The position numbers and the translations under genes were made by a program. DNA of 63,768 nucleotides from Actinomycetota bacterium (GTDB taxonomy: Bacteria; Actinomycetota; Coriobacteriia; Anaerosomatales; D1FN1-002), in the NCBI GenBank assembly GCA_037445995.1, contig JBBIJK010000005.1, positions 16,433 to 80,200 of the forward strand. The letters run 5' to 3'. Positions 1-50,868 of this stretch are shown one piece after another; position 1 is the stretch's first letter; each line of letters begins with the position of its first letter. The notes beneath the pieces were generated by a model that did no database searches, was not told where the DNA came from, and saw nothing but the letters and a program-made list of their open reading frames with translations.

Positions 1-720
1 CCGCCGCCAGACCCTGTCTCCCTCCCGCACCGCCAGGTACGCCCTGGCCTCGGTGACCACCGGTCCCTGGTAGTCGAACTCCATGTCCTCCAGGGTGATG
101 AACGCTCCGGTGAAGGGGACGCCGCGATCAGGAAGCTGCGTTATCCGCTGGTGGGACTCCCTTACATCGGGCGTCTCGACGCCCTCGACCAGCAGCATCT
201 CCCCTTCGAACCTGGTCATGGCCGTGACGACCCCGGCGAGGATCACAGCCACCATGCCCCAGTGCATGACCAGCGAACCGGTGTGCCCTCGACGGCCCGA
301 GACGCAGACCACTCCCCCCGGCGCCTCCGCGCACGCCCTGGCGTTCCAGCCGCCCCCGAGCGCCAGGGCCGCCTCGGCCGGCCCCAGACGCCAGGCGATC
401 TCATGAGCCGATTCCGGAGGCTTTCCGACAGAGCCGAACCGCCGGTCGCGACGCTTCGACCTCAGAGCCGTGCACGCCGCGAGATTCACGGACAGGAGCA
501 CGGTCACGACATAGAACGGCCATGAGTGGAACACCCGGTCCAGGCCGAGCGCGAGCGCCGGCTCGGCCAGCCACGGCTCCGACTCGCGCCACCGGTCGAC
601 GACGTTGGTCCCGAGCGTCGCGCTCTGGGGCACGACCACCGACAACACGGACATGACGAGCAGCACCGCGATGAGAGCGGCCGCCAGCCTGATGGAAGCG
701 AGGGCCCTCAGGGCCTTCAT
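1..720 (-). CDS. ResB/CcsB-like cytochrome c biogenesis protein (System II); C-terminal part lies beyond the window edge
   Basis: Absent from the ORF track because there is no stop inside the window. My own translation of the reverse strand from ATG 720-718 gives 240 open codons: MKALRALASIRLAAALIAVLLVMSVLSVVVPQ...RVFHSWPFYVVTVLLSVNLAACTALRSKRR...GHTGSLVMHWGMVAVILAGVV. This shows a ResB-type N-terminal TM, an SWxF helix with Cys/Arg, and a His-containing TM. The ATG overlaps the upstream stop (ATGA at 717-720). Confidence 0.7.
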   Translation of the reverse strand, partial: MKALRALASIRLAAALIAVLLVMSVLSVVVPQSATLGTNVVDRWRESEPWLAEPALALGLDRVFHSWPFYVVTVLLSVNLAACTALRSKRRDRRFGSVGKPPESAHEIAWRLGPAEAALALGGGWNARACAEAPGGVVCVSGRRGHTGSLVMHWGMVAVILAGVVTAMTRFEGEMLLVEGVETPDVRESHQRITQLPDRGVPFTGAFITLEDMEFDYQGPVVTEARAYLAVREGDRVWRR

Positions 721-2303
721 CGACCGTCCCCGGCAGCCGCCGGGTCCCCTACCCTCCACTCAGGCGCCTGCGCGAGGGCTTCGTCCGGAGCCGGCCATGC
801 CTTCACACCCCGCACGCCCTTCGACAGGACCCTCTCGGGCAGCGGCCACAGGTCGATGACGACAGCGAGGTCGTACAGCCGCCGTCCGGCGCGCTGCATG
901 GCCCGCTTGGAAGCCTCAGGGTCGGGCGCGGACCTGGCCTGGCGGTACGCCTCCTCGACCTCGGGATCGTCAAGGTGGCCGAAGTTCAGCCCCCACGGCC
1001 GCTCCCATGAAGGATGGTCTCCCGCCACGAACTGGAACGCCCACCCCCACGGCCTCCCCTCCGGGATGGCCAGGTAGTACGCGGGCTTCACGCCGCGGGC
1101 GACGTCGCCGTACTCCACCCACGATGTGCGAGGCCAGGTCGAGCCCTGCCCGATGACGCCGTACATGCCCGAAGAGGCCCACACGTTGGTGATGTGTTGC
1201 GTGACGGCCGCATCCTCGCGCGTCATCGCGTGGGTGCCCGTGAACAGGTCCAGCCGCTTGCCCTCCTTCATCCTGACCCCGCGGGCGGCGTCGAACAGGT
1301 ACCCGGCCGCCTCGAAGGTCCGGGCCGCGGCCCGCGTGTCCGGACGGCTGCGCGAGGGAGGCGCGATCCCGAACGGATAGGCCGCCTCGGGCAGGTCGGG
1401 CGGGACTGTGGTCGAGGTCATCGCCGCCACGGCGCGCCTCAGCCCGACGTCGTTCCACCTCTGCCCCGGGCGGGTGTCGAAGGCCAGCCGCTTCCAGACG
1501 GGCCCCCAGGTGGTCGAAAGCGACTCGGCGTCACTGGCGGGGCCGAGCGGAGCGTCGAGCCAGACGGCGGCCGCGGCCTGGTCGAACGCCCTAGCCGCCT
1601 CCGCGGAGTCCCGGTGGGGCGAGATGGTCAGCGAGGGGGCCCCCGGGGCCCGCGGCGCAAGGTCCACCTCGCCCCCTGGAGCCGCGTACTCCACCTCATA
1701 GGGGCCCGAGACGACGGGCGCCTGCCAGTAGGAGTCGCGGGCGGGGTCCGCGCTCCCGGAAAGCACGTGCTCAGGAAGGACGTATGGCGCCAGCCTCCAC
1801 GCCAGGACGGAGTCCGGGCCAGACATCCTGACCACGACCGTACGGTCGTCGGGGGTGTCGACGCTCTCTATGACCGACATGTCCTCCGCCGGGTCGTCCG
1901 TCAGCCGGCCGTCCGCGAGCAGGCGGATGGTGAACGCGACGTCCCGCGATGTGAGCGGGGTCCCGTCAGACCACTCGGCATCCTCGGTCACGCGGTAGGT
2001 CACGGTCCTGCCCCCGTCGCCTAAGCCGCCGTTGGCCACCGTCGGCACCTCCACGGCCAGATCGGGCTCGGGCCCGCCGTCGGGGCCGACGGCGAACAGG
2101 CCGCGAAGGAGCAGCCGGCCGATGCGACGGTCCGATGTCCGGGGGGAGTAGGGGTTGAGCGTCAGGCCGCGCTCCTCCGTGACAACCACGACGGTCTCAG
2201 CGGCGCCACCCGAGCCGCCCTGTCCGGGCGCTCCCGCGCAGCCGGTGGCGAACGCGACAAGGAGCAGCCCCGCGAGCGCCGCGCTGCCGATCCGGCCTCT
2301 CAC
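717..2303 (-). CDS. ABC-type substrate-binding lipoprotein, family 5 (peptide/nickel/heme-type SBP); no permease or ATPase nearby
   Basis: ORF 717..2555. The likely GTG start at 2303 (GTGA overlap with the upstream stop) gives the lipoprotein signal VRGRIGSAALAGLLLVAFATGC. The body has the family-5 SBP hallmark region TYRVTEDAEWSDGTPLTSRDVAFTIRLL. Confidence 0.7.
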   Translation of the reverse strand: MRGRIGSAALAGLLLVAFATGCAGAPGQGGSGGAAETVVVVTEERGLTLNPYSPRTSDRRIGRLLLRGLFAVGPDGGPEPDLAVEVPTVANGGLGDGGRTVTYRVTEDAEWSDGTPLTSRDVAFTIRLLADGRLTDDPAEDMSVIESVDTPDDRTVVVRMSGPDSVLAWRLAPYVLPEHVLSGSADPARDSYWQAPVVSGPYEVEYAAPGGEVDLAPRAPGAPSLTISPHRDSAEAARAFDQAAAAVWLDAPLGPASDAESLSTTWGPVWKRLAFDTRPGQRWNDVGLRRAVAAMTSTTVPPDLPEAAYPFGIAPPSRSRPDTRAAARTFEAAGYLFDAARGVRMKEGKRLDLFTGTHAMTREDAAVTQHITNVWASSGMYGVIGQGSTWPRTSWVEYGDVARGVKPAYYLAIPEGRPWGWAFQFVAGDHPSWERPWGLNFGHLDDPEVEEAYRQARSAPDPEASKRAMQRAGRRLYDLAVVIDLWPLPERVLSKGVRGVKAWPAPDEALAQAPEWRVGDPAAAGDGR

Positions 2304-3385
2304 CGCTTGACCTCCCCGTACCTCAGGACCGTTACCCCTTCGGCGTCGGCGTCCAGCAGCCACAGGGCGCCGGCCGCCACGCGCGCGCGGGGCAGCAGGT
2401 CGGGCAGGAACACCGACCAGGGAACGATCTCCCTGGCGATCAGGCGCCCGGTATGCGAGGCCGCTATGACCTCCGCCTCGGGCACGAGGGCGTAGGGCCA
2501 GCCCGCGCGACCGACAGCGACCTCGGGGGCGAAGCTCCGGGGCATGACCACCCACACCACGTCTCCGTCAACCCCCAGAGGGGTCGACATGCCGGGCACG
2601 CGCAGCATCGAGCCGTCAGGCCACGTGATCGTGTGGGTGCTGTCCTCGGTGGGGTTGAACCCGTCCTCCTCCAGGAGCCTGCGGTACATGCGGCCCGCGG
2701 TGTCGGCGCCGGCGCCCACCACCGCGACCTGCTCCTCGACGGGCGCCGGACCTTCGGCCAGCAGCTCGACGATTGGCACCGCCTGGGGCTCGAACCGCAT
2801 CGCCGCCGGGACGTCGTCGAACATGAAGATCTCGGACGTCACGAACAACCTGTCTTCGGCCCTGAACAGGTTCGCGCTGTTCACTTCGGCCGGTATGGGG
2901 AAACTGGCCTCCACGGAACCGTCCTCACTCAGGAGCCTCAGCGTCTCGCTCATGGACTCCCCCCGGGCGGTGACGTACATGATGCCGTTGCCGAACGGCT
3001 CGAAGAGCGTCGAGCCCGGAGGGGTCATCCAGGTGGCCTCCAGCTTCCCCTCAGGGGAGAAGCGGCGAACCCTGGCGCCGACGTGCCAGCCGGGATGATC
3101 GGCCAGCAGGATCCTCCCGTCCGGCGTCACGGCCAGCCTGCCCACCGTCGAGCCTGACCCCTCGGGGTCCGCCCAGACGTCGCCGTCTCCCGTGCCCCAC
3201 GGCAGGCGCAGCACGACCGTGGGCTCAAGGTCGAGCGCTGGAGGCTGCGAGAGGTCGACCTGTGGCACGAGCTCAGGCGGCGGCTTCCCCGCCCCGCCGA
3301 ACAGGTAGGTCGCGAACCCCGCGCCCAGCAGGGCCGCTATAGCCGCGCTGCCGATGACGATGCCGCGCACGGTCCGCCGGTCCAT
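2300..3385 (-). CDS. Hypothetical protein with an N-terminal TM anchor and an extracytoplasmic domain
   Basis: 361-aa ORF with ATG at 3385 preceded by GGAGGA. N-terminus MDRRTVRGIVIGSAAIAALLGAGFATYLF is one hydrophobic helix. No motif recognised in the rest. Packed between ccsA-like and SBP genes with 12-nt and overlapping junctions. Confidence 0.6.
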   Translation of the reverse strand: MDRRTVRGIVIGSAAIAALLGAGFATYLFGGAGKPPPELVPQVDLSQPPALDLEPTVVLRLPWGTGDGDVWADPEGSGSTVGRLAVTPDGRILLADHPGWHVGARVRRFSPEGKLEATWMTPPGSTLFEPFGNGIMYVTARGESMSETLRLLSEDGSVEASFPIPAEVNSANLFRAEDRLFVTSEIFMFDDVPAAMRFEPQAVPIVELLAEGPAPVEEQVAVVGAGADTAGRMYRRLLEEDGFNPTEDSTHTITWPDGSMLRVPGMSTPLGVDGDVVWVVMPRSFAPEVAVGRAGWPYALVPEAEVIAASHTGRLIAREIVPWSVFLPDLLPRARVAAGALWLLDADAEGVTVLRYGEVKR

Positions 3386-3397
3386 GGTCCTCCGTGA

Positions 3398-4201
3398 TCA
3401 GTATGGCCTGATGAGCGTGATCTCGAAATGGTGGTAAGTCCCCGGGAAGACGCTCCATATCCACAGCGCGAGCAGCAGCAGCGGGAGCACCGACACGACC
3501 GCTGCGGCAAGCCCTCTGCCGGACAGACTATAGAACAGCCGGGCGTGGATGACGAGGGCGTAGGCGAGCCATGCGACCATGGACAGCGTGCCCACCACGT
3601 CCCAGCGCCAGAACTCGGCGAACAGCAGGTAGAGGTACCAAGCGCCGGTCAGTATCATCGCCGTCATCGCCAGGAAGCCGACGTTGAGCCACGAGCCGAT
3701 CGCGTCGTCGGACGCCTCGGGCGTCATGCCCCAGGCCGGACGGCCGAGCAGTCTGGGGACGGACACGCTGGTGGCGGCGAGGAAGCCGGCGAACGCCACC
3801 CACGCGAAGATCGCGTGCGCCTCCACCCAGAGCGACTGCTCGGAGATGGTGAGCGGCAGAGGCTCCCGCCGGAAGAAAGCCCCGTAAAGCAGGAGGGCCA
3901 GGGACCAGGGCGCCGCCCAGCCCCACGCGCCCGCGGAGTCACGCCGCAGCGAAGTGACGACGGCCGCCCAGGCCAGGAACACCGACGCCAGGAGCGTGTT
4001 CTCGAACGTCCCGAACATCGGGATGTGGCCGGCCGCGGCCCACCTCAGGGCCACCGCGAGGGTGCCCAGGACCGCGACGGCCCGGCAGACCCACCGCGAC
4101 CACGCCAGCGGCCCCCGCGCGACCGCCCACAACAGCAGGACGCACAGGACGATCACCCCGGTGGAGTAGACGGCCAGCGAGACCTCGAACGCCGCTCTCA
4201 C
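3398..4201 (-). CDS. ccsA: CcsA/ResC-like cytochrome c assembly protein (System II heme handling)
   Basis: 267-aa polytopic membrane ORF. Contains GHIPMFGTFENTL, the Trp-rich segment GAWYLYLLFAEFWRWDVVGTLSMVAWLAYALVIHARL (a degenerate WWD domain followed by the conserved His), and an internal VEAHAIFAW His. The GTG start overlaps the stop of the upstream resB-like gene (GTGA). Confidence 0.75.
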   Translation of the reverse strand: MRAAFEVSLAVYSTGVIVLCVLLLWAVARGPLAWSRWVCRAVAVLGTLAVALRWAAAGHIPMFGTFENTLLASVFLAWAAVVTSLRRDSAGAWGWAAPWSLALLLYGAFFRREPLPLTISEQSLWVEAHAIFAWVAFAGFLAATSVSVPRLLGRPAWGMTPEASDDAIGSWLNVGFLAMTAMILTGAWYLYLLFAEFWRWDVVGTLSMVAWLAYALVIHARLFYSLSGRGLAAAVVSVLPLLLLALWIWSVFPGTYHHFEITLIRPY

Positions 4202-5535
4202 GTCCCGGCCCCCTTACCCGAGGCGCCATCCGAGATACGGCGCCCGACCTCGCGGGCCAGAGGAAGGCCGGCGGCGCGCCCCGGCCGTCCGTCGACGCGA
4301 GCGAGGACCCCGAGCCCCTCGCCGTGCCTCCAGACGACCACGTGCCTGGCCGGGAGAAGGGTACGGCATCCAAGCCCGGCCGTCATCATCACGCCCGCCA
4401 GCGCCAGCAGCGGCCAGCCGTACGAGCGCCACACGCGAAGGACGCCGAAGCGCCGCATCTCGGCCACCCTCACGTCCATGCCCGACACGCCGAGCGTCTC
4501 ACCCACCGACACCAGACGCCTGCCTTCCACCACCCCTGAAGGGAAGGTGCGCTCGACCCCCATCAGCACCTTTGGGTTCCGCAGGTTGTAGCTGGCCGAG
4601 ACGTCACGGCCCCCCATCCTCGCGTGGTCGGGGTACACCACCATCGACACCGTGTAGCCATGCCCCGGCAGGCGCACCCTGTCGAGCGAGCCGGGCGGGA
4701 AGAGCGCCGCGGCGGCTATGACCTCCTCGACCACCTCGCCGGATGGCGACAGCAGCTGGATGCGGGGGGCGTACCCGAAATCCTGCACCGACATCAGCGT
4801 GAACGGGTCCAGCCAAAGAGGCGAGGACAGGGAGAACCCCCGCGTCCTCCCGGTGCCCTCCTCCACCACCGTCGCCGCCAGCCGCTCGAACAGCAGCACG
4901 TCTTGGAAGAAGGACGGCTCGAGTGTCTCAAGCGTCAGGCTGGCCGCCGATGAGGGCAACGCCTCCCAATCCCCCTCTCCGGCCGCGAGGCCAGCGAGCG
5001 GGACGTCGCTGCTCTGACCCTCGATGAGCCTGAACTGGATCGAGCCGGCGGTCGCGGCGTGCGCCACCAGCCCGGCCGCCAGCAGAGGCACGCCCAGGTG
5101 GAAGAGCGAGCCCGACAGCAGCGACCATCGCCTCTGGACGCCCGTGACCCGGTCCTCAAGGCGCGAGACCGCGAATCCCATTCGGCCCAGAGCGGCCTGC
5201 GCGGCCTCCAAGTCCCCCACGCAACTATCCATCGGCTCAAGAGGCAGAGGGCGGCCGGCGGAGCGCTTCAGCCGCAGGCGGCCGAGGTCCTTGCCCAAGC
5301 GCGCCAGGCCGCAGACGGCGCTTGTGGCCACCAGCGCCCAGTGGGCTGCCCTGAAGGGCAGCCAGTCGTTGCCGATGCCCCGGAGCGTCGCCTCGGGCTG
5401 GCCGGTGAGCTGGAACGGGACCAGCCACACCAGCGCCAGCGCGATCCACGCCCCGATCACCCAGAAGGACGCGACGCGCGACGACATGGCGTCGAGGAAC
5501 AGACTCAGGGCGCGCCGTACCGGCGTGCGCATCAA
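4198..5535 (-). CDS. ResB/CcsB-like cytochrome c biogenesis protein, divergent copy
   Basis: 445-aa ORF (ATG at 5532 is the second codon). Layout is N-terminal TM, WLPFRAAHWALVATSAVCGLARL helix, RRWSLLSGSLFHLGVPLLAAGLVAH helix, a large soluble middle and a C-terminal TM WPLLALAGVMMTAGLG, which is ResB-like topology. Lies 38 nt downstream of the giant cytochrome gene. Confidence 0.6.
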   Translation of the reverse strand: MMRTPVRRALSLFLDAMSSRVASFWVIGAWIALALVWLVPFQLTGQPEATLRGIGNDWLPFRAAHWALVATSAVCGLARLGKDLGRLRLKRSAGRPLPLEPMDSCVGDLEAAQAALGRMGFAVSRLEDRVTGVQRRWSLLSGSLFHLGVPLLAAGLVAHAATAGSIQFRLIEGQSSDVPLAGLAAGEGDWEALPSSAASLTLETLEPSFFQDVLLFERLAATVVEEGTGRTRGFSLSSPLWLDPFTLMSVQDFGYAPRIQLLSPSGEVVEEVIAAAALFPPGSLDRVRLPGHGYTVSMVVYPDHARMGGRDVSASYNLRNPKVLMGVERTFPSGVVEGRRLVSVGETLGVSGMDVRVAEMRRFGVLRVWRSYGWPLLALAGVMMTAGLGCRTLLPARHVVVWRHGEGLGVLARVDGRPGRAAGLPLAREVGRRISDGASGKGAGT

Positions 5536-5574
5536 GCTAGATGACCTCCGATCACGTCATGCCGTACGGCGGCC

Positions 5575-8500
5575 CTACCTGCGTCGGCTGTAGTAGTAGA
5601 TGACGCCGTCGGAGCCGCGAGGGTTGGTGGGACCGTGCTCGTTGCAGGTAGCGTAGGTCGACGTGAACTCCTGCGTCACGCAGTTGGCGGCGCCGTCGGG
5701 CAGGTTCGCCCCTACGTCCTCGTACCGGTGCGAGGCTCCCCAGACCGCGCCGTTCATCATGCGATAGCCCGCCGCGGTCCACTGCGCCGTCGGGGACGCC
5801 TCGCGGTTGGTGCCGTGGAGGGCGCCCGACGACGGCCAGCCCGTGCGGGGTCTGGCGCCGTGGCACTGGTAGCAGCCGATGTTCATCAGGTGAGCCATCC
5901 CCCAGCTTGCGGTGCCGGCGTCGTCGACCCTGCTGCACCCCGAATGGTTGAATCGCGACAGGTTACGGTAGGTCGCGCCGTTGACATACACGTCGGCGCG
6001 GTGGCAGTTCACGCAGAAGTTGGACGCGTTGGTGTTGGTGTTGTTGTTGGGCAGGAGGACCGATCCGCCAGCGACCGTGACCTTGACGGCGGTGTCCTTA
6101 CCTCGAAGTTGCCAGCGGCTCGAGGAGCCGTGAGGCGTATGGCAGTCGGTGCAGGTCACGAGGCTGGCGGCCTGCCATCCGTTGGTGAAGGTGTTGGACA
6201 GGCCGTTGTTGATCTCCGCGGTGCCGATGCGGCGGCGCCCCGCGCTGGTGTTCCAGTTGGTGTTGGCGTTGACCGGGGGCTGGTTCCAGCCGCGAGCGAA
6301 CACCGGGTGGTATGAGGTCATCGACGGGTTGAAGTCGCGACCGACGTCGGTCTGCTGACCGCCGCCCATTGCGCCCGCGCCGGACTGGTTGGCCGTGCTC
6401 AGGCTCACGAGCGGCGTGGCGGCGGTGCTCCACGCGTAGCGGCTGTGGCACTTCAGGCACAGCTGCCACTGGTAGGAGATCGTCTCGACCTTGGAGTACG
6501 TCGGGAAGGCGGGGGTGATGGTGGTCCCGCTCCCCGTCCACGTCCCGTTGACCGACCCGGAGATGGTGACGCCCCAGACGCCGTACAGGGCCCCTCCGAG
6601 CGGTACGGCAGTGTCGGTCGGCCTCACGCTGTGGAATTCCGGCAGGGTCGATGCACCGGAACGTGTCGCGTGGACGTTGTGGCAGTCCATGCAGCTCGCG
6701 TGCCGGGTGGCACCGACGTTCCAGCCCGCGGCCGTGTTCTCCTGCGCGGAGTGCCGCTCCCGGCCGATCGGGTGGCGGTACGGACGCGCGAAGTCGCTCT
6801 CGACGCGGCTGGCCGGCCAGGTCAGCGGCTGGGAATCGTAGTAGTCGCGCCGCTTGACCGCGTTGGGGTTGCCAAAGCCGTGGCACCGGTAGCACAGCGT
6901 CGGGTAGGAGGTGCCCGTCGCGTTGATGGAGACGCCCATGCCGGCCAGCAGCGTGGCCTCGGCGGAGAAGTGGAGGCCAAAGCGGTCGGGGCCGATCGCC
7001 TTGCTGCCGGTGTTCTCGTCGTCGTGGCACTTGGAGCAGTTCGCCCTGAAGTTGGGCTGCCCCGCGGCCAGGGTGCCCGGGACCGAATAGTTGTGCGCCG
7101 AGGCGGCGTAGTCCTGCGGGGATATCCCGAAGACGATCGGGCCGCCGCCGGCCCTCTGGTTGACGTTGTCCCTTGGCATGTTGGAGGAGTGGCAGCTCAG
7201 GCAGATCCCGTAGCTCGGGTTGCCGCTGGCGATGAAGTCGGTGTTGGTGCCCCCCGTCGAAGGCTGGGCGCCGATCGAGAAGCGCAGGTTCGCGGCGGGG
7301 TTGGCGTTGAAGTAGTTGTGGTCCACGTGGCAGGAGACGCACTGCAGCACCGACGTCGATGTCGGATAGGCACCGGTGCCGGGCGCCGCGTCAGGCGGCG
7401 AGCCGTCGAGCACGTGATGGAAGAAGCCGGTCTGACCCGTGTTCATCGCCTGATACGGATGGCATCCGTAGCAGGGCAGGGTGCCGTTGGAGCCGCCGCC
7501 CGTGGGCTGGTGGACGTCCGCGTGACAGCCCAGGCAGCTCTGCGTGGTGTCGTAGTGGTAGTGGCCGTTGACGTTGGGCAGCCTCAGCTTGGGGCCGACC
7601 GCCTGCCCGACCGCCGACTGCGTGAAGCGGCTGAAGCCAAGGGCGCGGTCCCCGACGGTGACGGACTGCATCGCCGAGCCGTTCCAGCCCGAGTTGCCGC
7701 TGGCGGTGGTGTGACAGCTGAAGCAGAAGTTGCGGACACCCTGGGCGGTACCCACGTTGAGCTCGCCCACGCCGTCACCGACGGTCACCGTCGTGCCGTT
7801 GTACTGCGTGATCACCTGCAGGCCGTACGTGGTCTCGCCCGAGCCGTGCGGGTTGTGGCACGCGTAGCACGGGATCGGCGAGCCGCCGGCGAACACGGTG
7901 CCGGTGGTGGACACGGTGCGGTGGCCCGAGCGGGGGTCGGTGCTGGAGCCGCCGACCGACGTCGGGTACTTGGCCCTGATGTCCAGCGTCGATGGCGAGC
8001 CGTCGTGGCAGGTGAAGCAGAAGGTGAACGAGGTGTTCGTGAACGTGCTGGTGGACGGGGTGCCTCGCAGGTCGTCAAGGGGGTTGGCGGTCCCGTGGAC
8101 ATCGTGGCACTGCTTGCAGTCGCCGCTGACGTAGGGGTTGGGCGAGAAGTCGGGCCAGCGCACGTTGACCGTCGAGGTGTTGTGGATGCCGCGCGCGATC
8201 CAGGTGGCAAAGCCCGGCCAGGCGCCGTCGGTCGGGTAGAACGAGGCTGTCAGCGATGGATGGGCCTGCGCCGGGAACCCGGTCGAGGCGACGTTGTGGC
8301 ACGCCTGGCAGACGCGGTTGTCGTTTGCGGTGATCGTCAGGGCGCCGATCGTGTTGACGTTGCTGGCGGCCTGGTAGGTGCCGAGCAGCTTGGGCGCCGC
8401 CGAGCCGTGCTTGTCGTGACAGTCGTCGCAGGTCTGGATCTCGCCGGCCGATATCGAGCCGTTGGGGATCCAGTGGCTGCGGGCCTGGTTGGGTGACTTG

Positions 8501-11500
8501 TTGGAGATGGCGGTCTTGGCAGCGCCGATCACGACAGGCGTCGGGACGAGCGATGGCGAGACGGACCACGCCGAGGGCACGGTGCCGTTGTGGCAGCTCA
8601 TGCAGAACTGCGTCCTGTCGTCCTTGGTGGCCCATGCGGCCGGCAGGTAGGTGTTGGTCGGCGAGGAGATCTTGGAGGTGTTCGAGACCTCGTGTGGGTT
8701 GTGGCAGTTCACGCACGCGACGCGAGAGCCAGAGGCGTTGCCAGAGACCGGGTGCGTGGATGCGCGAGAGAAGACCGCCTGGGTCGCGCGGTCCGCCACC
8801 GACATGGCCGCCACGCCGTAGTGGTCGGTCGTCGTGCCGTTGTGGCAGCGGAAGCAGGACTGCTCGAGCAGCGGGTCGACCATCGTGCCGCCAAGAGCCG
8901 AGAGCAGACGGCGCTCGGGCGAGACGTGCGCGGAGAACTTGTTGGCAGAGCTCTGGAACTGCTCCGTGGGGCTGTCGGAGTCGTGGCACTTGACGCAGTT
9001 GGCGCGGAAGGTCGATGAGCCGAACGTAGAGGTCGCGTTGTAGCTGTGCGTGGAGGTGGTGAACACCGAGCCGCTTATCGCCGCGACCCCGTTGCGGCCG
9101 TCACTGCGCTGGTTGGTGAGGTCCTTGGTGCGCGCCGTCGAGTGGCACGAGACGCAGATGCCGAAGCTGCCAGAACCGATGAAGTCGGTGTTGGTGGCAA
9201 GGGCGCCAGAGGTGTTGGTGATGGCGATGCGCAGGTTGGCGGCGGGCGAAGTCGGGCTCGAGCCGTTGAAGTAGTTGTGGTCGGTGTGGCACGAGACGCA
9301 GAAGACGTCCTGGTTCGATGTCGGGTAGGTCCCGGCGCCTGGCGCCATGTCGCCGGTGTAGGCGACGGTCGAGGTGCCCAGCACATGGTGGTAGGCGTTG
9401 GTCTTCTGGGTGCCGGCCATGTCCATGGTCTCGCGGAAGGCCGTGTGGCAGCTGTAGCAGTTCGAGCCGCCGTTGGAGATGCCGCCCGTGGGCTGGTGCG
9501 GGTCTGCGTGGCACTGCAGGCAGTCCTGCGTGGTGTCGTAGTGGTAGTGGCCGTTGACGTTGGGGAGCCTGAGCTTGGGGCCGACCGCCTGCCCGACCGC
9601 CGACTGCGTGAAGCGGCTGAAGCCAAGGGCGCGGTCCCCGACGGTGACGGACTGCATCGCCGAGCCGTTCCAGCCCGAGTTGCCGCTGGCGGTGGTGTGA
9701 CAGCTGAAGCAGAAGTTGCGGACACCCTGGGCGGTACCCACGTTGAGCTCGCCCACGCCGTCACCGACGGTCACCGTCGTGCCGTTGTACTGCGTGATCA
9801 CCTGCAGGCCGTACGTGGTCTCGCCCGAGCCGTGCGGGTTGTGGCACGCGTAGCACGGGATCGGCGAGCCGCCGGCGAACACGGTGCCGGTGGTGGACAC
9901 GGTGCGGTGGCCCGAGCGGGGGTCGGTGCTGGAGCCGCCGACCGACGTCGGGTACTTGGCCCTGATGTCCAGCGTCGATGGCGAGCCGTCGTGGCAGGTG
10001 AAGCAGAAGGTGAACGAGGTGTTCGTGAACGTGCTGGTGGACGGGGTGCCTCGCAGGTCGTCAAGGGGGTTGGCGGTCCCGTGGACATCGTGGCACTGCT
10101 TGCAGTCGCCGCTGACGTAGGGGTTGGGCGAGAAGTCGGGCCAGCGCACGTTGACCGTCGAGGTGTTGTGGATGCCGCGCGCGATCCAGGTGGCAAAGCC
10201 CGGCCAGGCGCCGTCGGTCGGGTAGAACGAGGCTGTCAGCGATGGATGGGCCTGCGCCGGGAACCCGGTCGAGGCGACGTTGTGGCACGCCTGGCAGACG
10301 CGGTTGTCGTTTGCGGTGATCGTCAGGGCGCCGATCGTGTTGACGTTGCTGGCGGCCTGGTAGGTGCCGAGCAGCTTGGGCGCCGCCGAGCCGTGCTTGT
10401 CGTGACAGTCGTCGCAGGTCTGGATCTCGCCGGCCGATATCGAGCCGTTGGGGATCCAGTGGCTGCGGGCCTGGTTGGGTGACTTGTTGGAGATGGCGGT
10501 CTTGGCAGCGCCGATCACGACAGGCGTCGGGACGAGCGATGGCGAGACGGACCACGCCGAGGGCACGGTGCCGTTGTGGCAGCTCATGCAGAACTGCGTC
10601 CTGTCGTCCTTGGTGGCCCATGCGGCCGGCAGGTAGGTGTTGGTCGGCGAGGAGATCTTGGAGGTGTTCGAGACCTCGTGTGGGTTGTGGCAGTTCACGC
10701 ACGCGACGCGAGAGCCAGAGGCGTTGCCAGAGACCGGGTGCGTGGATGCGCGAGAGAAGACCGCCTGGGTCGCGCGGTCCGCCACCGACATGGCCGCCAC
10801 GCCGTAGTGGTCGGTCGTCGTGCCGTTGTGGCAGCGGAAGCAGGACTGCTCGAGCAGCGGGTCGACCATCGTGCCGCCAAGAGCCGAGAGCAGACGGCGC
10901 TCGGGCGAGACGTGCGCGGAGAACTTGTTGGCAGAGCTCTGGAACTGCTCCGTGGGGCTGTCGGAGTCGTGGCACTTGACGCAGTTGGCGCGGAAGGTCG
11001 ATGAGCCGAACGTAGAGGTCGCGTTGTAGCTGTGCGTGGAGGTGGTGAACACCGAGCCGCTTATCGCCGCGACCCCGTTGCGGCCGTCACTGCGCTGGTT
11101 GGTGAGGTCCTTGGTGCGCGCCGTCGAGTGGCACGAGACGCAGATGCCGAAGCTGCCAGAACCGATGAAGTCGGTGTTGGTGGCAAGGGCGCCAGAGGTG
11201 TTGGTGATGGCGATGCGCAGGTTGGCGGCGGGCGAAGTCGGGCTCGAGCCGTTGAAGTAGTTGTGGTCGGTGTGGCACGAGACGCAGAAGACGTCCTGGT
11301 TCGATGTCGGGTAGGTCCCGGCGCCTGGCGCCATGTCGCCGGTGTAGGCGACGGTCGAGGTGCCCAGCACATGGTGGTAGGCGTTGGTCTTCTGGGTGCC
11401 GGCCATGTCCATGGTCTCGCGGAAGGCCGTGTGGCAGCTGTAGCACGCGCTCCCGCCGCTCGAGCCGCCCGGACTCGGGTTGTGGACGTTGTTGGTGGTC

Positions 11501-14500
11501 GCCCCCGTGTAGTCGCTGCCGTGGCATCCGTAGCACGACTGGGTGTCGGCGTTGTAGTGGCCGCTCACCGGCGGGATCTTCAGGTGGGCGCCGTTGGCGT
11601 CGTAGGCCGTGCGCGAGATGCCGAGGTGGACGTCCCCGGCCTGCAGGGTGACCATCGTCGAGCCGTTCCACGCCCAAGTGGAGGTGGACTCCGCCGAGCC
11701 GTGGCAGCTGAAGCAGAACCGGCGTACCGATGCGGGGGTCGGCGTGCCGGTGACCGTGATCTCACCCGTGCTGTCGCCGATCGTGATGGTCGCCCCGCGC
11801 GTGCGGGTGACGACCTTCAGACCGTATGGCGAGGCGGTGCCGTGCGGGTTGTGGCACTCGTAGCAGGGCAGCGCGCTGCCCGCGGCGAGCGAGCCTGGCG
11901 ACAGAGTGCGGTGGCCGAAGCGCGTGCCGGGGCTGCTAGCGCCGCCGAACGCCGACTGGACCGCGGTCCCGCCGGCCGCCACCGGGTAGTAGCGGCGGAT
12001 GTCGTCAGCAGCCGGGCTGCCGTCGTGACAGGTGAAGCAGAACGCGAAGGTCCCAGCCGAGTAGTTCGGCGTCGTAGTCGTCCCGCCTCGCAGGATGTCG
12101 AGGGTGTTGGAGGGCCCGTGCATGACGTGGCAGTTCTTGCAATCGCCGGTCGCAAGACCCGACGAGGGCCAGATCATGTTGGCCGTGGAGGTCCCGTGCA
12201 GCGAACCGGTGTGGTCGGCGGGGCTGTAGACGACCGCGTAGGTCGCCTCGCCGGGCCAGCGGCCCGTGAGCGGGTAGCCCGAAGCGTTGCGCGAGTAGGC
12301 GGTAAGAGCGCCTGAGTGGCAGCCGTAGCAGACGGTGGCGTTGTTGCCGGTCAGGGTGCGGGCGCCGATGCGCGAGACCGCCGCGGTCGCGTCGTACGTC
12401 CCCAGGAGTCTAGGGACGCGGCTGGCGTGGTTGTCGTGGCAGGCGGTGCACTGGATGCCGGGATTGGACGATGTGGAGGGCACCCTCGAGACGTCGGCGT
12501 GCAGGTTCAGCGAGGGCGTCCAGCCGGTGCGGTGATCGCCGCCTGAGTTCACGTAGGCGCCGGAGCCGCCGACTATCGCGATCAGGGTCGCGGCCGAGTC
12601 GGAAGCGCTGCCGTGGCAGTCGAAGCAGACCTGGTTCCCGACCGGGTTCGAGTAGCTGTTGTAGCGGTAGGTGACGGCGGGCGTCGTGATCTGCGTGCGG
12701 AGCAGCAGGTTGAAGGCGTTAGCGGGGTTCGGGTCCACCCCGGTCGTGGCCGGACGACGGTGCGGGGTGTGGCACGCGTCGCACTCGCGCTGAATCGACG
12801 CCATGTAGGCGTTGCGATGCACCCAGCGCGTGCCGCTGACCGACGGGCCGGTGGTGGCCACGACGGTGTCGTCGCCAAAACCGCCCTGGGAGTCGTAGGT
12901 CGAGCCCCAGCCGAAGGCAGCGGTGCCGGCGGTCGCGCCGTGGCACCTGTAGCAGGACTGCGCGCTCTTGGCCCCCAGCGACAGCGACTGGGCCGCGCCG
13001 TGAGGGGTGTGGCAGTTGGTGCAGTTGGCGATGTTGTAGCCCGAGAGATAGGTCCCGTGAGGGTCTGGTGAGGACATCGGCGACGTCGCCGAGACGTTCC
13101 CTGAAGCGTCGATGGCGCGGATCGTGTAGTAGTAGGTGTACTTCGCGGGCAGCGTCTCGGTGGTGCCCTTCGCGAACGTGGCCGAGGTGACCGAGGAGGG
13201 CACCGTCGCCACCTGCATCGGCGTGGCGGTGACCGTGCGGGAGCGCCACACCGTGTAGGTGGTGACTCCGCTCTGGTCGTCGCGCGCGGCGTTCCACGTC
13301 ACCGTGACCGAGGACAACCCGTCGACGCGAGCGAAGGGCCGTGACGGCGCGCTGGGCGGCGTGACGTCGAGCACCTCTAGACCGGTGGAGAAGGTGATGG
13401 GCTCGACCTCGCCAAGCGGATTGCCCGCGCGGTCGCGGAGGGCCGGCGAGATGCGGATGGCGTAGGTGCCGCCAGCCAGCGCCACCTTGGGCTTGAGTCT
13501 GACGGCCCTCTCACGGGCGGAGTAGGTGACCTCGGCCGACACCGGCTTGCCAGCGGCGTCGGCAAGACTGACCCCGCGCTCGGCCGTGGTCGGGTCAAGG
13601 CTCTCCGAGAAGGTCAGCGTGAACGAGTCCGCGCGGACGCGGGTGGCCCCCGTCGGCACAGATGCGGCGACGAAACGCGGGGGCACGCGATCGCGCACCG
13701 AGGCCATCCGCAGCCGCAGGGGGCTCCAGACCTTGGCCGGCGACATGTAGCTGGCGAAGGTCAGGCTCGGCCCCGCGCCGGGATAGGCGCGGACCTGCCA
13801 GCGTCCGGCGTTGCGCTCGAGCCAGACGACCGCGTCGCCCTGCGCCTCCACGCCCGACATCGGCCCCGAGCCGCGGGAGTCAAAGACGACGGGCTTGCGG
13901 TCCGAGAGCGAGAAGCCGTCGATGTGGAGGCGCTCGCCGGCGCTGTTGTCTATCCAGTACGCGACCCCGCCGCCCACCGTCGGCAGCGTCTGCTCCCCCG
14001 GCCCGGTGAAGACGTCGAAGGTCTCGCCGGTGGCCGAGTCCCAGGCCCTGAGGTCGAGGCTGTCCCCTGCGGCGGCGGCCCAGACCACGTAACGGCCGTC
14101 GGTGGAGGGCAGCATCTCGTTGACCGAGGTGCCAGCTATGGTCGTCTTGACGCCGCTGACCCGGTTCCAGATGCGAACGTCCGCGTCACCGCGGCCGCCG
14201 GCCTGCCCGGAGTAGTCCTCCCAGACCACCAGGTCGCCAGCCACCTGCGGGCGGCGCTTGGGACGGTTGTAGCCAGAGTCGATCCAAACCTCGGCGCCAA
14301 GGGAGATGTCAAAGCCGTAGACACCGGGGCTGTAGCCGGTGCGATAGTCCTCCCAGACCACCAGGTCGCCCCAGACCGACGGATTGACCTGGTCGTTGGC
14401 GGCCGCGCACACGACCCGGGTGGTCCCCGAGGGGATATCGAAAAGGTGTATGTCGGCCGTGCCCGCCGCGTAGCTCACGTAGACCACGCGGTCACCGTAG

Positions 14501-14763
14501 ATAGCGGGCTGGATCTCATCGGCCGCCGAAGACGCGATTGCACGCGTCACACCGGACGCCGAGTCCATCAGCATGATGTCGAACGAGCCCCCCGAGCGGT
14601 CCGCCCACACCACCCAGCGACCCGAGATCGCCGGGGTCTCGGGCATGCGCCCGCCAGCGGCGAGGGGCGACCCCGCGCCGTTCAGCGCGACCGCGACGGC
14701 CGCGCACAGCGCGAAAGCCGTTGCGAGTGCAACGGCCAGATAGCGCCTCGACAGCGTACGCAT
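5575..14763 (-). CDS. Giant secreted multiheme c-type cytochrome (~3062 aa, ~49 CXXCH) with propeller-like, Ig-like and FN3-like N-terminal domains
   Basis: ORF 5575..14844. I place the start at ATG 14763 (GGGAG 6 nt upstream), which gives the signal-like MRTLSRRYLAVALATAFALCAAVAVA. There are seven GxxVVWxD-type repeats, then SbsA-Ig-like and FN3-like segments. I count 49 CXXCH motifs (CTNCH, CYRCH, CDACH ... CYQCH), many as CXXCHxxH(G). Confidence 0.9.
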   Translation of the reverse strand: MRTLSRRYLAVALATAFALCAAVAVALNGAGSPLAAGGRMPETPAISGRWVVWADRSGGSFDIMLMDSASGVTRAIASSAADEIQPAIYGDRVVYVSYAAGTADIHLFDIPSGTTRVVCAAANDQVNPSVWGDLVVWEDYRTGYSPGVYGFDISLGAEVWIDSGYNRPKRRPQVAGDLVVWEDYSGQAGGRGDADVRIWNRVSGVKTTIAGTSVNEMLPSTDGRYVVWAAAAGDSLDLRAWDSATGETFDVFTGPGEQTLPTVGGGVAYWIDNSAGERLHIDGFSLSDRKPVVFDSRGSGPMSGVEAQGDAVVWLERNAGRWQVRAYPGAGPSLTFASYMSPAKVWSPLRLRMASVRDRVPPRFVAASVPTGATRVRADSFTLTFSESLDPTTAERGVSLADAAGKPVSAEVTYSARERAVRLKPKVALAGGTYAIRISPALRDRAGNPLGEVEPITFSTGLEVLDVTPPSAPSRPFARVDGLSSVTVTWNAARDDQSGVTTYTVWRSRTVTATPMQVATVPSSVTSATFAKGTTETLPAKYTYYYTIRAIDASGNVSATSPMSSPDPHGTYLSGYNIANCTNCHTPHGAAQSLSLGAKSAQSCYRCHGATAGTAAFGWGSTYDSQGGFGDDTVVATTGPSVSGTRWVHRNAYMASIQRECDACHTPHRRPATTGVDPNPANAFNLLLRTQITTPAVTYRYNSYSNPVGNQVCFDCHGSASDSAATLIAIVGGSGAYVNSGGDHRTGWTPSLNLHADVSRVPSTSSNPGIQCTACHDNHASRVPRLLGTYDATAAVSRIGARTLTGNNATVCYGCHSGALTAYSRNASGYPLTGRWPGEATYAVVYSPADHTGSLHGTSTANMIWPSSGLATGDCKNCHVMHGPSNTLDILRGGTTTTPNYSAGTFAFCFTCHDGSPAADDIRRYYPVAAGGTAVQSAFGGASSPGTRFGHRTLSPGSLAAGSALPCYECHNPHGTASPYGLKVVTRTRGATITIGDSTGEITVTGTPTPASVRRFCFSCHGSAESTSTWAWNGSTMVTLQAGDVHLGISRTAYDANGAHLKIPPVSGHYNADTQSCYGCHGSDYTGATTNNVHNPSPGGSSGGSACYSCHTAFRETMDMAGTQKTNAYHHVLGTSTVAYTGDMAPGAGTYPTSNQDVFCVSCHTDHNYFNGSSPTSPAANLRIAITNTSGALATNTDFIGSGSFGICVSCHSTARTKDLTNQRSDGRNGVAAISGSVFTTSTHSYNATSTFGSSTFRANCVKCHDSDSPTEQFQSSANKFSAHVSPERRLLSALGGTMVDPLLEQSCFRCHNGTTTDHYGVAAMSVADRATQAVFSRASTHPVSGNASGSRVACVNCHNPHEVSNTSKISSPTNTYLPAAWATKDDRTQFCMSCHNGTVPSAWSVSPSLVPTPVVIGAAKTAISNKSPNQARSHWIPNGSISAGEIQTCDDCHDKHGSAAPKLLGTYQAASNVNTIGALTITANDNRVCQACHNVASTGFPAQAHPSLTASFYPTDGAWPGFATWIARGIHNTSTVNVRWPDFSPNPYVSGDCKQCHDVHGTANPLDDLRGTPSTSTFTNTSFTFCFTCHDGSPSTLDIRAKYPTSVGGSSTDPRSGHRTVSTTGTVFAGGSPIPCYACHNPHGSGETTYGLQVITQYNGTTVTVGDGVGELNVGTAQGVRNFCFSCHTTASGNSGWNGSAMQSVTVGDRALGFSRFTQSAVGQAVGPKLRLPNVNGHYHYDTTQDCLQCHADPHQPTGGISNGGSNCYSCHTAFRETMDMAGTQKTNAYHHVLGTSTVAYTGDMAPGAGTYPTSNQDVFCVSCHTDHNYFNGSSPTSPAANLRIAITNTSGALATNTDFIGSGSFGICVSCHSTARTKDLTNQRSDGRNGVAAISGSVFTTSTHSYNATSTFGSSTFRANCVKCHDSDSPTEQFQSSANKFSAHVSPERRLLSALGGTMVDPLLEQSCFRCHNGTTTDHYGVAAMSVADRATQAVFSRASTHPVSGNASGSRVACVNCHNPHEVSNTSKISSPTNTYLPAAWATKDDRTQFCMSCHNGTVPSAWSVSPSLVPTPVVIGAAKTAISNKSPNQARSHWIPNGSISAGEIQTCDDCHDKHGSAAPKLLGTYQAASNVNTIGALTITANDNRVCQACHNVASTGFPAQAHPSLTASFYPTDGAWPGFATWIARGIHNTSTVNVRWPDFSPNPYVSGDCKQCHDVHGTANPLDDLRGTPSTSTFTNTSFTFCFTCHDGSPSTLDIRAKYPTSVGGSSTDPRSGHRTVSTTGTVFAGGSPIPCYACHNPHGSGETTYGLQVITQYNGTTVTVGDGVGELNVGTAQGVRNFCFSCHTTASGNSGWNGSAMQSVTVGDRALGFSRFTQSAVGQAVGPKLRLPNVNGHYHYDTTQSCLGCHADVHQPTGGGSNGTLPCYGCHPYQAMNTGQTGFFHHVLDGSPPDAAPGTGAYPTSTSVLQCVSCHVDHNYFNANPAANLRFSIGAQPSTGGTNTDFIASGNPSYGICLSCHSSNMPRDNVNQRAGGGPIVFGISPQDYAASAHNYSVPGTLAAGQPNFRANCSKCHDDENTGSKAIGPDRFGLHFSAEATLLAGMGVSINATGTSYPTLCYRCHGFGNPNAVKRRDYYDSQPLTWPASRVESDFARPYRHPIGRERHSAQENTAAGWNVGATRHASCMDCHNVHATRSGASTLPEFHSVRPTDTAVPLGGALYGVWGVTISGSVNGTWTGSGTTITPAFPTYSKVETISYQWQLCLKCHSRYAWSTAATPLVSLSTANQSGAGAMGGGQQTDVGRDFNPSMTSYHPVFARGWNQPPVNANTNWNTSAGRRRIGTAEINNGLSNTFTNGWQAASLVTCTDCHTPHGSSSRWQLRGKDTAVKVTVAGGSVLLPNNNTNTNASNFCVNCHRADVYVNGATYRNLSRFNHSGCSRVDDAGTASWGMAHLMNIGCYQCHGARPRTGWPSSGALHGTNREASPTAQWTAAGYRMMNGAVWGASHRYEDVGANLPDGAANCVTQEFTSTYATCNEHGPTNPRGSDGVIYYYSRRR
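7541..11445 (-). repeat. In-frame tandem duplication, period 1986 bp (662 aa, 14 CXXCH per unit), two copies
   Basis: 7586..9459 matches 9572..11445 with no differences seen. Overlapping ORFs in several frames are duplicated exactly at offset 1986 (for example 7812..8210 and 9798..10196, or 8075..8989 and 10061..10975). Two synonymous mismatches occur at 7579/9565 and 7585/9571. Identity decays outside 7541 and 9459/11445. Confidence 0.9.
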
Positions 14764-14827
14764 TTGCGCTCCCGTATCCGAGACGAAGACCAGCGCGGCT
14801 GATAGCCGCCCTGACACCTTAATACGG

Positions 14828-14870
14828 ATTATCGGCCGATTCAATGTCAGACGCTGTGAGCGCCGTCACA
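14828..14870 (-). promoter_or_regulatory. Candidate promoter of the cytochrome operon: CRP/FNR-family palindrome TGTGA-N6-TCACA plus a GATAAT -10 box
   Basis: Perfect TGTGAgcgccgTCACA at 14855..14870, inside a longer imperfect palindrome (TGTC...GACA, 14846..14880). GATAAT on the minus strand at 14833..14828 places the palindrome centre at -41.5 if GATAAT is -12..-7. No good -35 hexamer. Confidence 0.4.
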
Positions 14871-14884
14871 CGAGACGACACTGT

Positions 14885-14916
14885 CGGCGCCCGCTACCGC
14901 CGGCGCCCGCTACCGC
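14885..14916. repeat. 16-bp perfect tandem direct repeat (cggcgcccgctaccgc x2) spanning the argH stop codon
   Basis: Read directly: 14885..14900 is identical to 14901..14916. The argH stop (TAG, 14912-14910) lies in the second copy. Confidence 0.9.
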
Positions 14917-27189: not shown

Positions 27190-27478
27190 CTCCTCCGTAC
27201 GAATGTAAAGGAGCCAGCTCCGTCCTCCAAGGACGGGAGCCGGCTCCCGCGGTACCACCTCGGTTGGCCGCCTCTGGCGACCCTCTCATCGCCGCCGGCA
27301 GTGCCGGCGGCCCCGGCCCTGCGACCGGCAAGCCCGATATCGGGGGCACCGGCTCCCCTACTCGACCCTAGCGGGCCTTTCGGTTCGCGACTGAGGAGTG
27401 AACCGGTCCTCCCCCGCTCGGACCCCTCGCAGTCTGGGGGGTCCTCCCTTTGGAGCGGGTGGCCGAAGACCGCCTCTC
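27190..27478 (-). promoter_or_regulatory. T-box riboswitch leader, Phe specifier (UUC)
   Basis: The reverse strand shows the T-box core GAGGUGGUACCGCGGGAG (27246..27259 region) and an AGGGA (AGVGA-type) box. The specifier-loop 3' side reads GG-UUC-A followed by CUCC, which pairs with the 5' GGAG; UUC is at 27402..27400. A hairpin gagccggctcccgtcc/ggacggagctggctc followed by CUUU lies before the pheS RBS GGAGGAGG. Confidence 0.75.
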
Positions 27479-50800: not shown

Positions 50801-50868
50801 GTGAGCCCTCCCTGTCCTGCGCCCCGCGCCGTGGCGAGCGTGCGCTATTGATACCATAGTCGCGGCCC

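Follow-up and report, generated by a model that had tools for sequence, protein, structure and literature searches.

A conserved gene cassette links a predicted giant multiheme cytochrome to two predicted System II synthases in Coriobacteriia-related Actinomycetota

How respiratory electrons cross a wall tens of nanometres thick in a cell that lacks an outer membrane, and how a polypeptide with dozens of covalent hemes is matured, are open questions that could both be approached through the single locus described here. The stretch under study (the window) comprises 63,768 nucleotides (nt) of contig JBBIJK010000005.1 from assembly GCA_037445995.1 (positions 16,433-80,200, forward strand), with a G+C content of ~70% throughout. 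On its minus strand, at 5575..14763, lies a gene for a giant multiheme c-type cytochrome of 3,062 amino acids (aa) with 49 CXXCH motifs, followed downstream by genes for System II cytochrome c maturation. In System II, ResB and CcsA export heme and form thioether bonds outside the membrane on an unfolded substrate exported by Sec. A first-pass annotation of the window had described a secreted cytochrome with ~49 hemes and System II genes downstream, and direct reading of the motifs and gene junctions confirms that this combination is real.

The giant open reading frame (ORF) spans 5575-14844 (-), and its best start is the ATG at 14763, which has a GGGAG ribosome-binding site (RBS) upstream and yields the 3,062-aa product. 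The same start is called in a second assembly, GCA_964592805.1 (locus L001), whose giant protein has equal length and is 99% identical. The 49 CXXCH motifs compare with a mean of 0.14 and a maximum of 2 in 2,000 shuffles of the protein's own residues, and no CX3CH, CX4CH or CXXCK motif is found in the protein. Pfam models identify Paired_CXXCH_1 at 234 bits (cut-off 20.6) and MtrC/MtrF domain II/IV at 219 bits, the latter in 10 stretches. The heme-binding region, where the MtrC/MtrF matches lie, extends over aa 581-2968 (5860..13023, -) and contains the 49 motifs, with one heme to every ~51 residues on average; besides the histidines of the motifs it has a further 68, which would be enough for bis-His ligation. 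The first five CXXCH are invariant across 12 family homologues, and the spacing of the motifs matches that of a 54%-identical orthologue from the genome FDZ70. Conservation of CXXCH positions among homologues, which the first-pass annotation had named as a point to check, is thus borne out for the shared sites.

The part of the protein that precedes the hemes has the look of an exported surface protein. Residues 1-37 (14653..14763, -) form an N-terminal export signal with an RR-containing n-region, a 20-residue hydrophobic core and an Ala/Gly-rich c-region; probable AXA-type cleavage sites are seen in homologues, and there is no transmembrane (TM) helix past the signal. An AlphaFold2 (AF2) model of residues 1-800, made from an alignment of 12 homologues, places a helix at residues 3-27. 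A TolB-like beta-propeller follows (aa 31-330; 13774..14673, -), which matches NCBIfam beta_prop_Msarc, the beta-propeller repeat of Methanosarcina surface proteins, at 110 bits; it is modelled with a predicted local distance difference test score (pLDDT) of 80-90, and Foldseek aligns it with TolB and with the propeller of the trilobed protease 2gop (TM-score 0.74). Next come a Big_5 bacterial immunoglobulin (Ig)-like domain (aa 358-460; 13384..13692, -; Pfam PF13205, E 2.6e-13), modelled as a confident beta-sandwich, and, directly before the first heme site, an Fn3-like beta-sandwich (aa 470-565; 13069..13356, -) whose strands have pLDDT 60-77. The Fn3-like domain has a weak Ig_J_second match and is kept across the family. 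A sequence search of the giant protein against all Protein Data Bank (PDB) chains gave no match. Judged from its sequence features, the giant protein is an exported, modular multiheme c-type cytochrome.

Downstream, on the same strand, lie ResB-like 1 (g2; 444 aa, 4198..5532), CcsA1 (g3; 267 aa, 3398..4201), a membrane-anchored, Cys-free beta-propeller (g4; 361 aa, 2300..3385), an orphan lipoprotein of the SBP_bac_5 family of substrate-binding proteins (SBP) (g5; 528 aa, 717..2303) and ResB2 (g6; 1..720), of which the window end leaves the N-terminal 240 of 447 aa. The genes are tightly packed. GTGA overlaps join g2 to g3 (4198-4201) and g4 to g5 (2300-2303), an ATGA overlap joins g5 to g6 (717-720), and 12 nt separate g3 from g4, with GGAGG ahead of the ATG at 3385. 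These values stand as given in the first-pass annotation. Its gap of 38 nt after the giant gene does not: the distance from the stop codon to the g2 ATG at 5532, which has GGAGG upstream, is 42 nt, or 39 nt to a TTG at 5535. Upstream of the giant gene, the 146-nt intergenic region that separates it from argH (14764..14909, -) is the likely site of a promoter and RBS, and a scan for sigma-70-type consensus sequences detected no site in it. Terminator-like hairpins are not commoner in the window than in shuffled sequence, and none is found at any cassette junction. The arrangement of the giant gene and the downstream genes looks like an operon.

Profile searches upheld the gene identities proposed at first, and the gene that had been left as an unknown can be assigned as the membrane-anchored propeller. 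The proposed end of the operon had to be revised. In L001, which belongs to the same species as the window (98.7% identical at the DNA level), the rest of ResB2 and then CcsA2 (290 aa) lie beyond the point that corresponds to window position 1. The predicted cassette is made of at least seven genes with two complete ResB/CcsA pairs, and does not end at position 1.

Is the association of these genes accidental? To find relatives, we searched with the divergent ResB-like 1 and inspected the contigs that carry its relatives. A fixed order was observed: giant cytochrome, ResB-like 1, CcsA1 (exactly 267 aa), propeller, SBP, ResB2, CcsA2. The full order is present in six loci beyond the window, namely L001 and L086, L087, L088, L089 and L090; in the last five, ResB-like 1 is 39-64% identical to that of the window. 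A partial locus, L002, comes from FDZ70 ('Actinobacteria bacterium') and contains ResB-like 1 and CcsA1 before the contig ends. The giant orthologue of FDZ70 (3,140 aa, 48 CXXCH and one CX3CH) is located after the same arg operon. The six-gene cassette thus accompanies the cytochrome in at least seven lineages, with ResB-like 1 at 29-64% identity, always directly after it, and a divergent extra heme-lyase paralogue adjoins the giant cytochrome in 7/7 lineages. The linkage of the predicted giant cytochrome to System II genes, proposed from the window alone, is conserved and not accidental.

The genes that flank the cassette outside the window also recur (L001 26277-29189; L086 17118-19406; L087 13904-15618; L089 10352-12075; L090 8928-13181). 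They include two divergently oriented CW_binding_2 proteins, one of them weakly SlpA-like (L001, L086, L088, L090), and, in 4/6 loci, a 449-aa B12-binding radical S-adenosylmethionine protein, whose best partial matches are BchE and HpnR, followed by a protein of ~125 aa.

The two ResB/CcsA pairs are not alike. ResB-like 1 scores 19 bits with the Pfam ResB model, below the cut-off of 24.6; it aligns with ResB proteins along its length, PF05140 is assigned to its orthologues (39-64% identical), and the conserved TM histidine is present in a GSxxxHxG motif. Its partner, CcsA1, scores 46.6 bits with Cytochrom_C_asm (cut-off 29.9) and shows an altered WWD motif: FWRWDVVGT in the window and FWRWD[VI]V[GE]T in each of the four CcsA1 orthologues, compared with the canonical WGxYWxWDPxE. 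The histidines at P-His1, TM-His2 and P-His2 are kept, as mapped through CcsA2, which was in turn aligned to the CcsBA structure 7S9Y. No match to CcsA1 was found in a sequence search of all PDB chains. The second pair is more conventional. ResB2 scores 72.6 bits with the ResB model as a window fragment and 96.2 bits at full length, and has the histidine motif GSLVMHWG. CcsA2, taken from L001, reaches 130.8 bits with Cytochrom_C_asm, aligns to Helicobacter hepaticus CcsBA (7S9Y) with E 1.6e-17, and contains IHV, YWKWDPVETW and MHAR, plus YH near the C-terminus. ResB-like 1/CcsA1 (pair 1) and ResB2/CcsA2 (pair 2) are two predicted System II cytochrome c synthases.

Across lineages, identity is 29-62% for ResB-like 1, 43-56% for ResB2, 53-62% for CcsA1 and 62-80% for CcsA2. 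Because proteins of the pair-1 and pair-2 types are only 20-29% identical to each other, while identity within types is 29-80%, we consider them old paralogues that have both been maintained, an observation that points to selection on both types. What may distinguish pair 1 functionally was sought in the heme motifs. A non-standard heme motif as the reason for a special lyase was rejected, as the giant protein has no CX3-4CH or CXXCK. We also rejected a C-terminal C..CxxH motif (described below), which is likewise present in a related 15-heme family that has a single pair. The first-pass annotation had spoken of a private maturation set; this is plausible for the divergent pair 1, while pair 2 may be the general System II of the cell. 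It had also noted that thiol-reducing partners were missing, and indeed no CcdA- or ResA-like gene is found among the annotated ORFs of the window.

Two further cassette proteins accompany the synthases. The g4 product, first described as a TM-anchored unknown, does have a TM anchor. It matches no Pfam family (SGL appears only at E 0.09), its homologues are only 5 in 5.8 billion proteins, all of them inside the cassette, and a scan of JGI metagenome contigs with the g4 alignment found no relatives. An AF2 model based on the five homologues (pLDDT 70.7, predicted TM-score 0.71) has a TM helix at residues 3-29 and is otherwise all-beta; Foldseek relates it to six-bladed SGL/NHL propellers at the fold level only (TM-score 0.3-0.47). 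The model thus suggests a membrane-anchored, Cys-free beta-propeller specific to this clade. When g4 was compared with the NHL protein found in clusters of the 15-heme family, as a possible diverged copy, HHalign aligned one blade only, with a probability of 24%; g4 is therefore called no more than a beta-propeller here. The g5 product scores 77.4 bits with SBP_bac_5 (cut-off 32.4), matches only profile positions 12-223 of 368, corresponding to the N-lobe, and has the lipobox ..FATGC. Its matches to Opp4A and NikA are weak, and it is far from ordinary family members; nonetheless, six cassettes have kept it, at 31-63% identity. A role as part of an ordinary transporter was rejected, as no permease or ATPase gene is found in seven loci. 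In contrast, locus L003 of the 15-heme family has an ordinary SBP with a full transporter. On their fixed position and conservation, g4 and g5 are integral members of the predicted cassette.

How the giant cytochrome reached its size is partly written in its heme region. Self-comparison yields the module order S1-B0-A1-B1-A2-B2-A3-C. Two AB units are found in tandem, copy 1 at aa 1096-1757 (9493..11478, -) and copy 2 at aa 1758-2419 (7507..9492, -), each with 662 residues and 14 CXXCH, and the tandem period is 1,986 nt. Identity between A1B1 and A2B2 is 98-99%, but only 44% between B0 and B1 and 38% between A3 and A1, so that B0 and A3 are old copies. The DNA of the two units is 100% identical over 1,874 nt (7586-9459 vs 9572-11445), and the 20 differences between the window and L001 inside copy 1 are all mirrored at +1,986 nt in copy 2. 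FDZ70 has its own perfect tract of 1,286 nt between two units (L002 13451-14736 vs +1989). In L086, three AB units are present that are only 72% identical to each other in DNA, and the protein has at least 60 CXXCH. The perfect tract fits either gene conversion between the copies or an assembler traversing a repeat loop; the module repetition itself is real under either explanation.

Related proteins carry 45-76 CXXCH, with two AB units in the window and three in L086. An exhaustive, profile-free search with one AB unit retrieved 391 related clusters, 109 of them at E <=1e-30. Relatives of the AB module in a representative library (P0047-P0058) are as large as 4,629 aa, with up to 76 CXXCH, and differ in their N-termini, which have long Ig-like or Big_5 repeat arrays or extra heme regions of the CX3-4CH type; several of these relatives have the C-terminal domain and NYYY tail of the window protein.

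A wider family of ~15-heme cytochromes shares the propeller-Big_5-Fn3 N-terminus and the first heme sites; the five heme sites common to the wider family are invariant. It was detected in ~15 species-level metagenome-assembled genomes (MAGs), mostly labelled Coriobacteriia or Actinomycetota, and a scan of the genome collection for the propeller-cytochrome family found only MAGs as carriers, the window's own genome not among them, and no named isolate genome. ResB follows the cytochrome in 8/8 loci with downstream sequence, and CcsA follows ResB in 6/7 assessable loci; in L014, ResB is present and CcsA is not detectable. The cluster encodes Rex, a TPR protein, a membrane-anchored NHL propeller, a small cytochrome, the large cytochrome, a small lipoprotein, ResB and CcsA. 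CcsA2 of the cassette is 35-42% identical to the CcsA of this single pair. Around the clusters (L003, L005-L018, L031), PGM, glycosyltransferases and Wzy_C-TPR are encoded upstream, and LuxE lies on the opposite strand after CcsA. In L003 and L004, a complete Opp-like ATP-binding cassette transporter is inserted between the cytochrome and ResB.

The very end of the C-terminus has a non-CXXCH motif that is conserved throughout the superfamily (window 5578-5700), with two Cys and a His three residues after the second. It reads NCVTQEFTSTYATCNEH in the window protein and CxxxCGEH in the 15-heme family. In the giant subfamily it is followed by an N-Y-Y-Y tail (tails compared: P0002-P0014, L086-L090).

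The type of cell envelope that the cytochrome would have to cross can be judged from the host. Outside the cassette, the window consists of core chromosomal genes (pheST, infC, rplT, thrS, valS, clpXP, tig, mrp, leu/ilv, serA). Homologues are labelled Actinomycetota or Coriobacteriia, and the order argCJBDFRGH, reported in the first-pass annotation, is correct. A SipW-like signal peptidase (Peptidase_S26/S24) and a TasA/camelysin-like secreted protein (Peptidase_M73, 24.9 bits vs a cut-off of 22.5) are encoded by overlapping genes (27481-27894 and 27894-28379, -) between pheS and rplT, so that the SipW/TasA pair at 27481-28379 (-) is likewise confirmed. No porin or beta-barrel gene is present in the window cassette or in any related locus examined. 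No periplasmic decaheme partner was found in any of these loci either, and family models of the DmsE/GSU2203 type score far below their cut-offs. The earlier view of a monoderm genome agrees with the Actinomycetota homologues, the CW_binding_2 neighbours, the SipW/TasA pair and the lack of a porin gene in the loci, and a monoderm-type, Coriobacteriia-related actinomycetotal host is well supported. T-box leaders, which had been invoked in the same argument, contribute little: a single partial match (27229-27289, -; 3' part only, 32 bits against a gathering score of 93, E 8e-4) lies upstream of pheS. The mechanically called pheS ORF reaches ~180 codons upstream, through this T-box-like leader.

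We hold it moderately probable that the cassette encodes an exported 49-heme electron conduit of the cell envelope, matured by a partly dedicated System II set with the aid of extracytoplasmic helpers. The apoprotein would be threaded through Sec; on the outer face of the membrane, the System II synthases would attach the heme that they export to each CXXCH. Pair 1, which is divergent and has an altered WWD loop, might be specialised for a very long, repetitive substrate; pair 2 resembles the ordinary or general synthase found in related genomes. The extracytoplasmic helpers may be the propeller and the SBP-fold lipoprotein, both found only with giant cytochromes. Once mature, the protein would be held in the envelope by its non-heme N-terminal domains, and its heme chain would carry electrons across the thick wall or surface layer (S-layer), connecting redox carriers of the membrane with minerals, electrodes or partner cells outside, in a direction that is not readable from sequence. 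We infer that the giant cytochrome probably plays this wall-spanning role as a wire, whose length would change between species by gain or loss of 14-heme AB modules.

A bolder version of this model would make the six downstream genes a so far unrecognised 'assembly line' for very long multiheme polypeptides, in which two non-redundant synthases, the propeller and a repurposed SBP load 45-76 hemes processively, the SBP holds the apoprotein or buffers exported heme, and the length of the chain is tuned as 14-heme modules are gained, lost or gene-converted. This version is tentative: we regard it as possible rather than probable.

Several observations weigh against a conduit with partly dedicated maturation. 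All 49 sites are canonical CXXCH, so that the explanation known for specialised lyases, namely an unusual motif (Wolinella NrfI and the Wolinella enzyme named CcsA1), does not hold here. The related 15-heme family has only one ResB/CcsA pair. The cassette includes no membrane quinol-oxidising cytochrome, nor does it have the small cytochrome, the NHL protein and Rex of the 15-heme clusters. No recognised wall anchor (LPXTG, SLH or CW_binding) is found in the giant protein. The heme region is modelled with pLDDT ~25, so the length and geometry of the heme chain are not given by the model. Lastly, the heme count of 49 is uncertain, as the AB copy number is beyond the reach of short reads and needs long-read confirmation.

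In a rival scenario, both pairs are housekeeping System II enzymes for all c-type cytochromes, placed beside their largest client for co-regulation only, while the propeller and SBP serve other purposes, for example the binding of nutrients. The closeness of pair 2 to the single pair of the 15-heme family and to the solved CcsBA, together with the canonical nature of every motif, would be expected under this scenario. Furthermore, the window encodes another protein that may need maturation: a 166-aa lipoprotein (28563-29063, +) with a single C-terminal CAGCH, which scores 26.6 bits with Pfam Cytochrome_P460, just under the cut-off of 27, and would be another c-type cytochrome dependent on System II. 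However, co-regulation of housekeeping enzymes leaves unaccounted for the fact that all seven lineages have pair 1, the propeller and the SBP together, in an unchanging order and immediately behind the giant cytochrome; that the only five homologues of the propeller are in the cassette; and that the SBP, distant from ordinary family members, has no transporter genes. We consider this scenario unlikely. The cytochrome itself might also have a different job. It might be released or polymerised outside the cell, serve as an electron store (a capacitor), or draw electrons from Fe(II), cathodes or partner cells. No wall anchor, whether covalent or of a known non-covalent kind, is present in the giant protein, and its homologues have the probable AXA-type cleavage sites mentioned above; in addition, a related biocathode strain of Coriobacteriaceae expressed multiheme cytochrome (MHC) genes under electron uptake (PMC7943316). 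On the other hand, propeller, Ig and Fn3 domains such as those conserved at its N-terminus typify proteins of the cell envelope, and S-layer-like CW_binding_2 genes are conserved neighbours. A different job seems improbable to us, although the sequence does not discriminate among these roles.

The two remaining alternatives concern the data rather than the function. That the figure of 49 hemes is partly an assembly artefact, the true AB copy number being other than two, would explain the perfect identity of the tract, the mirroring of every strain difference and the similar tract of FDZ70. Gene conversion gives the same pattern, however, and two in-frame units with diverged ends are found in both assemblies of the species and in the FDZ70 orthologue; besides, the three units of L086 are distinct, and the window gene contains the older, diverged copies B0 and A3. 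An artefact of this kind is therefore judged rather doubtful. The contig might, finally, derive from a diderm whose cytochrome belongs to an ordinary porin-cytochrome system, a view to which the similarity to MtrC/MtrF domains (Pfam) and to decahemes of the DmsE/GSU2203 type (NCBIfam) lends itself. The decaheme scores are, however, far below the cut-offs, no beta-barrel gene accompanies the cassette or related loci, and the taxonomic labels of the homologues, the CW_binding_2 neighbours and the SipW/TasA pair all speak for a monoderm. A diderm origin is thus highly improbable.

Dedicated heme lyases have precedents. Wolinella succinogenes reportedly has three CcsBA isoenzymes, NrfI, CcsA1 and CcsA2, some of which are said to be encoded beside the cytochrome that they serve. 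The window locus is similar in that several System II synthases are found in one genome; unlike the fused CcsBA of Wolinella, its ResB and CcsA are separate proteins. A further difference is that the dedicated Wolinella enzymes recognise CXXCK and CX15CH, whereas all 49 motifs here are CXXCH; any specialisation must therefore rest elsewhere, for example in size, repetitiveness or throughput. A closer parallel in arrangement is offered by anaerobic methanotrophic archaea (ANME), where a divergent CcmF2 always adjoins the giant S-layer cytochrome MHC-B, the largest of which has 86 motifs (Chadwick et al. 2022, PMC9012536). The authors suggest special lyases for extremely large apoproteins, and cite the NrfE/CXXCK parallel for dedicated lyases (PMC9012536). 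Like the window protein, ANME MHC-B is a very large multiheme cytochrome fused to non-heme surface domains in a cell without an outer membrane. However, ANME are archaea that use System I (Ccm), while the window belongs to a bacterium with System II, and the two arrangements are analogous, not homologous. The domains differ too: MHC-B has an S-layer domain and a C-terminal TM helix, in contrast with the N-terminal propeller, Big_5 and Fn3 of the window protein. So do the partner genes, which encode a signal peptidase and an 8-TM protein in ANME, and a second synthase pair, a TM propeller and an orphan SBP in the window.

Among bacteria, the heme modules resemble those of Shewanella MtrC, OmcA and UndA, as judged by the MtrC/MtrF domain II/IV model; unlike these proteins, the window cytochrome has no porin or MtrA/MtrB partner, has ~5x more hemes, and resides in a monoderm host. 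In monoderms, a relay of several cytochromes with 6-11 hemes has reportedly been described for Thermincola potens (CwcA, OcwA) and Carboxydothermus ferrireducens (OmhA, Smh). Several modest cytochromes are found in those organisms, compared with 49 hemes on one polypeptide here. In monoderm metal reducers, the transfer of electrons through a thick Gram-positive wall or S-layer to minerals and electrodes is a proposed or demonstrated function of c-type cytochromes (PMC7829351).

The lineage of the host is no stranger to multiheme cytochromes either. Large MHCs were reported in 2017 for the deep-branching, Coriobacteriia-related Horonobe clade (PMC5520028), 37 MHCs for Coriobacteriales S27 from an anode biofilm (PMC7399161), and expression of MHC genes under electron-uptake conditions for the Coriobacteriaceae biocathode strain (PMC7943316). 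The cultured Anaerosomatales Anaerosoma and Parvivirga have multiheme clusters with cytochrome c biogenesis genes and Rex (PMC9686372), and the Parvivirga cluster matches that of the 15-heme family, not the giant cassette. Relatives of the host lineage are thus rich in MHCs, become enriched on electrodes and reduce Fe(III) (PMC5520028, PMC7399161, PMC7943316, PMC9686372); large MHCs in the lineage have been taken as markers of iron or electrode respiration, and a role as electron conduit has been proposed in print (PMC5520028, PMC7399161, PMC9686372). A total of 49 hemes, though large, does not set a record, and the general idea has been published before. The papers on Coriobacteriia-related MHCs that we examined describe neither the 45-76-heme subfamily nor the double System II cassette, and neither the propeller nor the orphan SBP. 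The System II 'private lyase' arrangement, the double synthase pair, the clade-specific propeller and the orphan SBP appear undescribed in the literature searched.

Two features elsewhere in the window deserve mention. A gene for a Wzy_C (O-antigen-ligase-like) membrane protein at 50869-52707 (+) is squeezed in between leuD-like (50303-50878) and leuC-like (52704-53972) genes of the opposite strand and touches both of them. Over the Mrp/Mnh antiporter cluster, at 42000-48000, the AT skew is strongly positive (0.24-0.33), unlike in the remaining window.

With regard to the two questions raised at the start, the locus offers a compact and conserved set of genes for testing both: the modular substrate is reducible to one 14-heme unit, the two synthase pairs are separately testable, and no role has yet been assigned to the two candidate helper proteins. 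Should the helpers matter, cytochrome c biogenesis would gain new components, with a possible use in making long heme wires in other hosts. The cassette also provides a defined marker by which electroactive Actinomycetota may be recognised in metagenomes from the subsurface and from sediments. Its main value, however, is to offer a tractable system for how very long heme wires get assembled.

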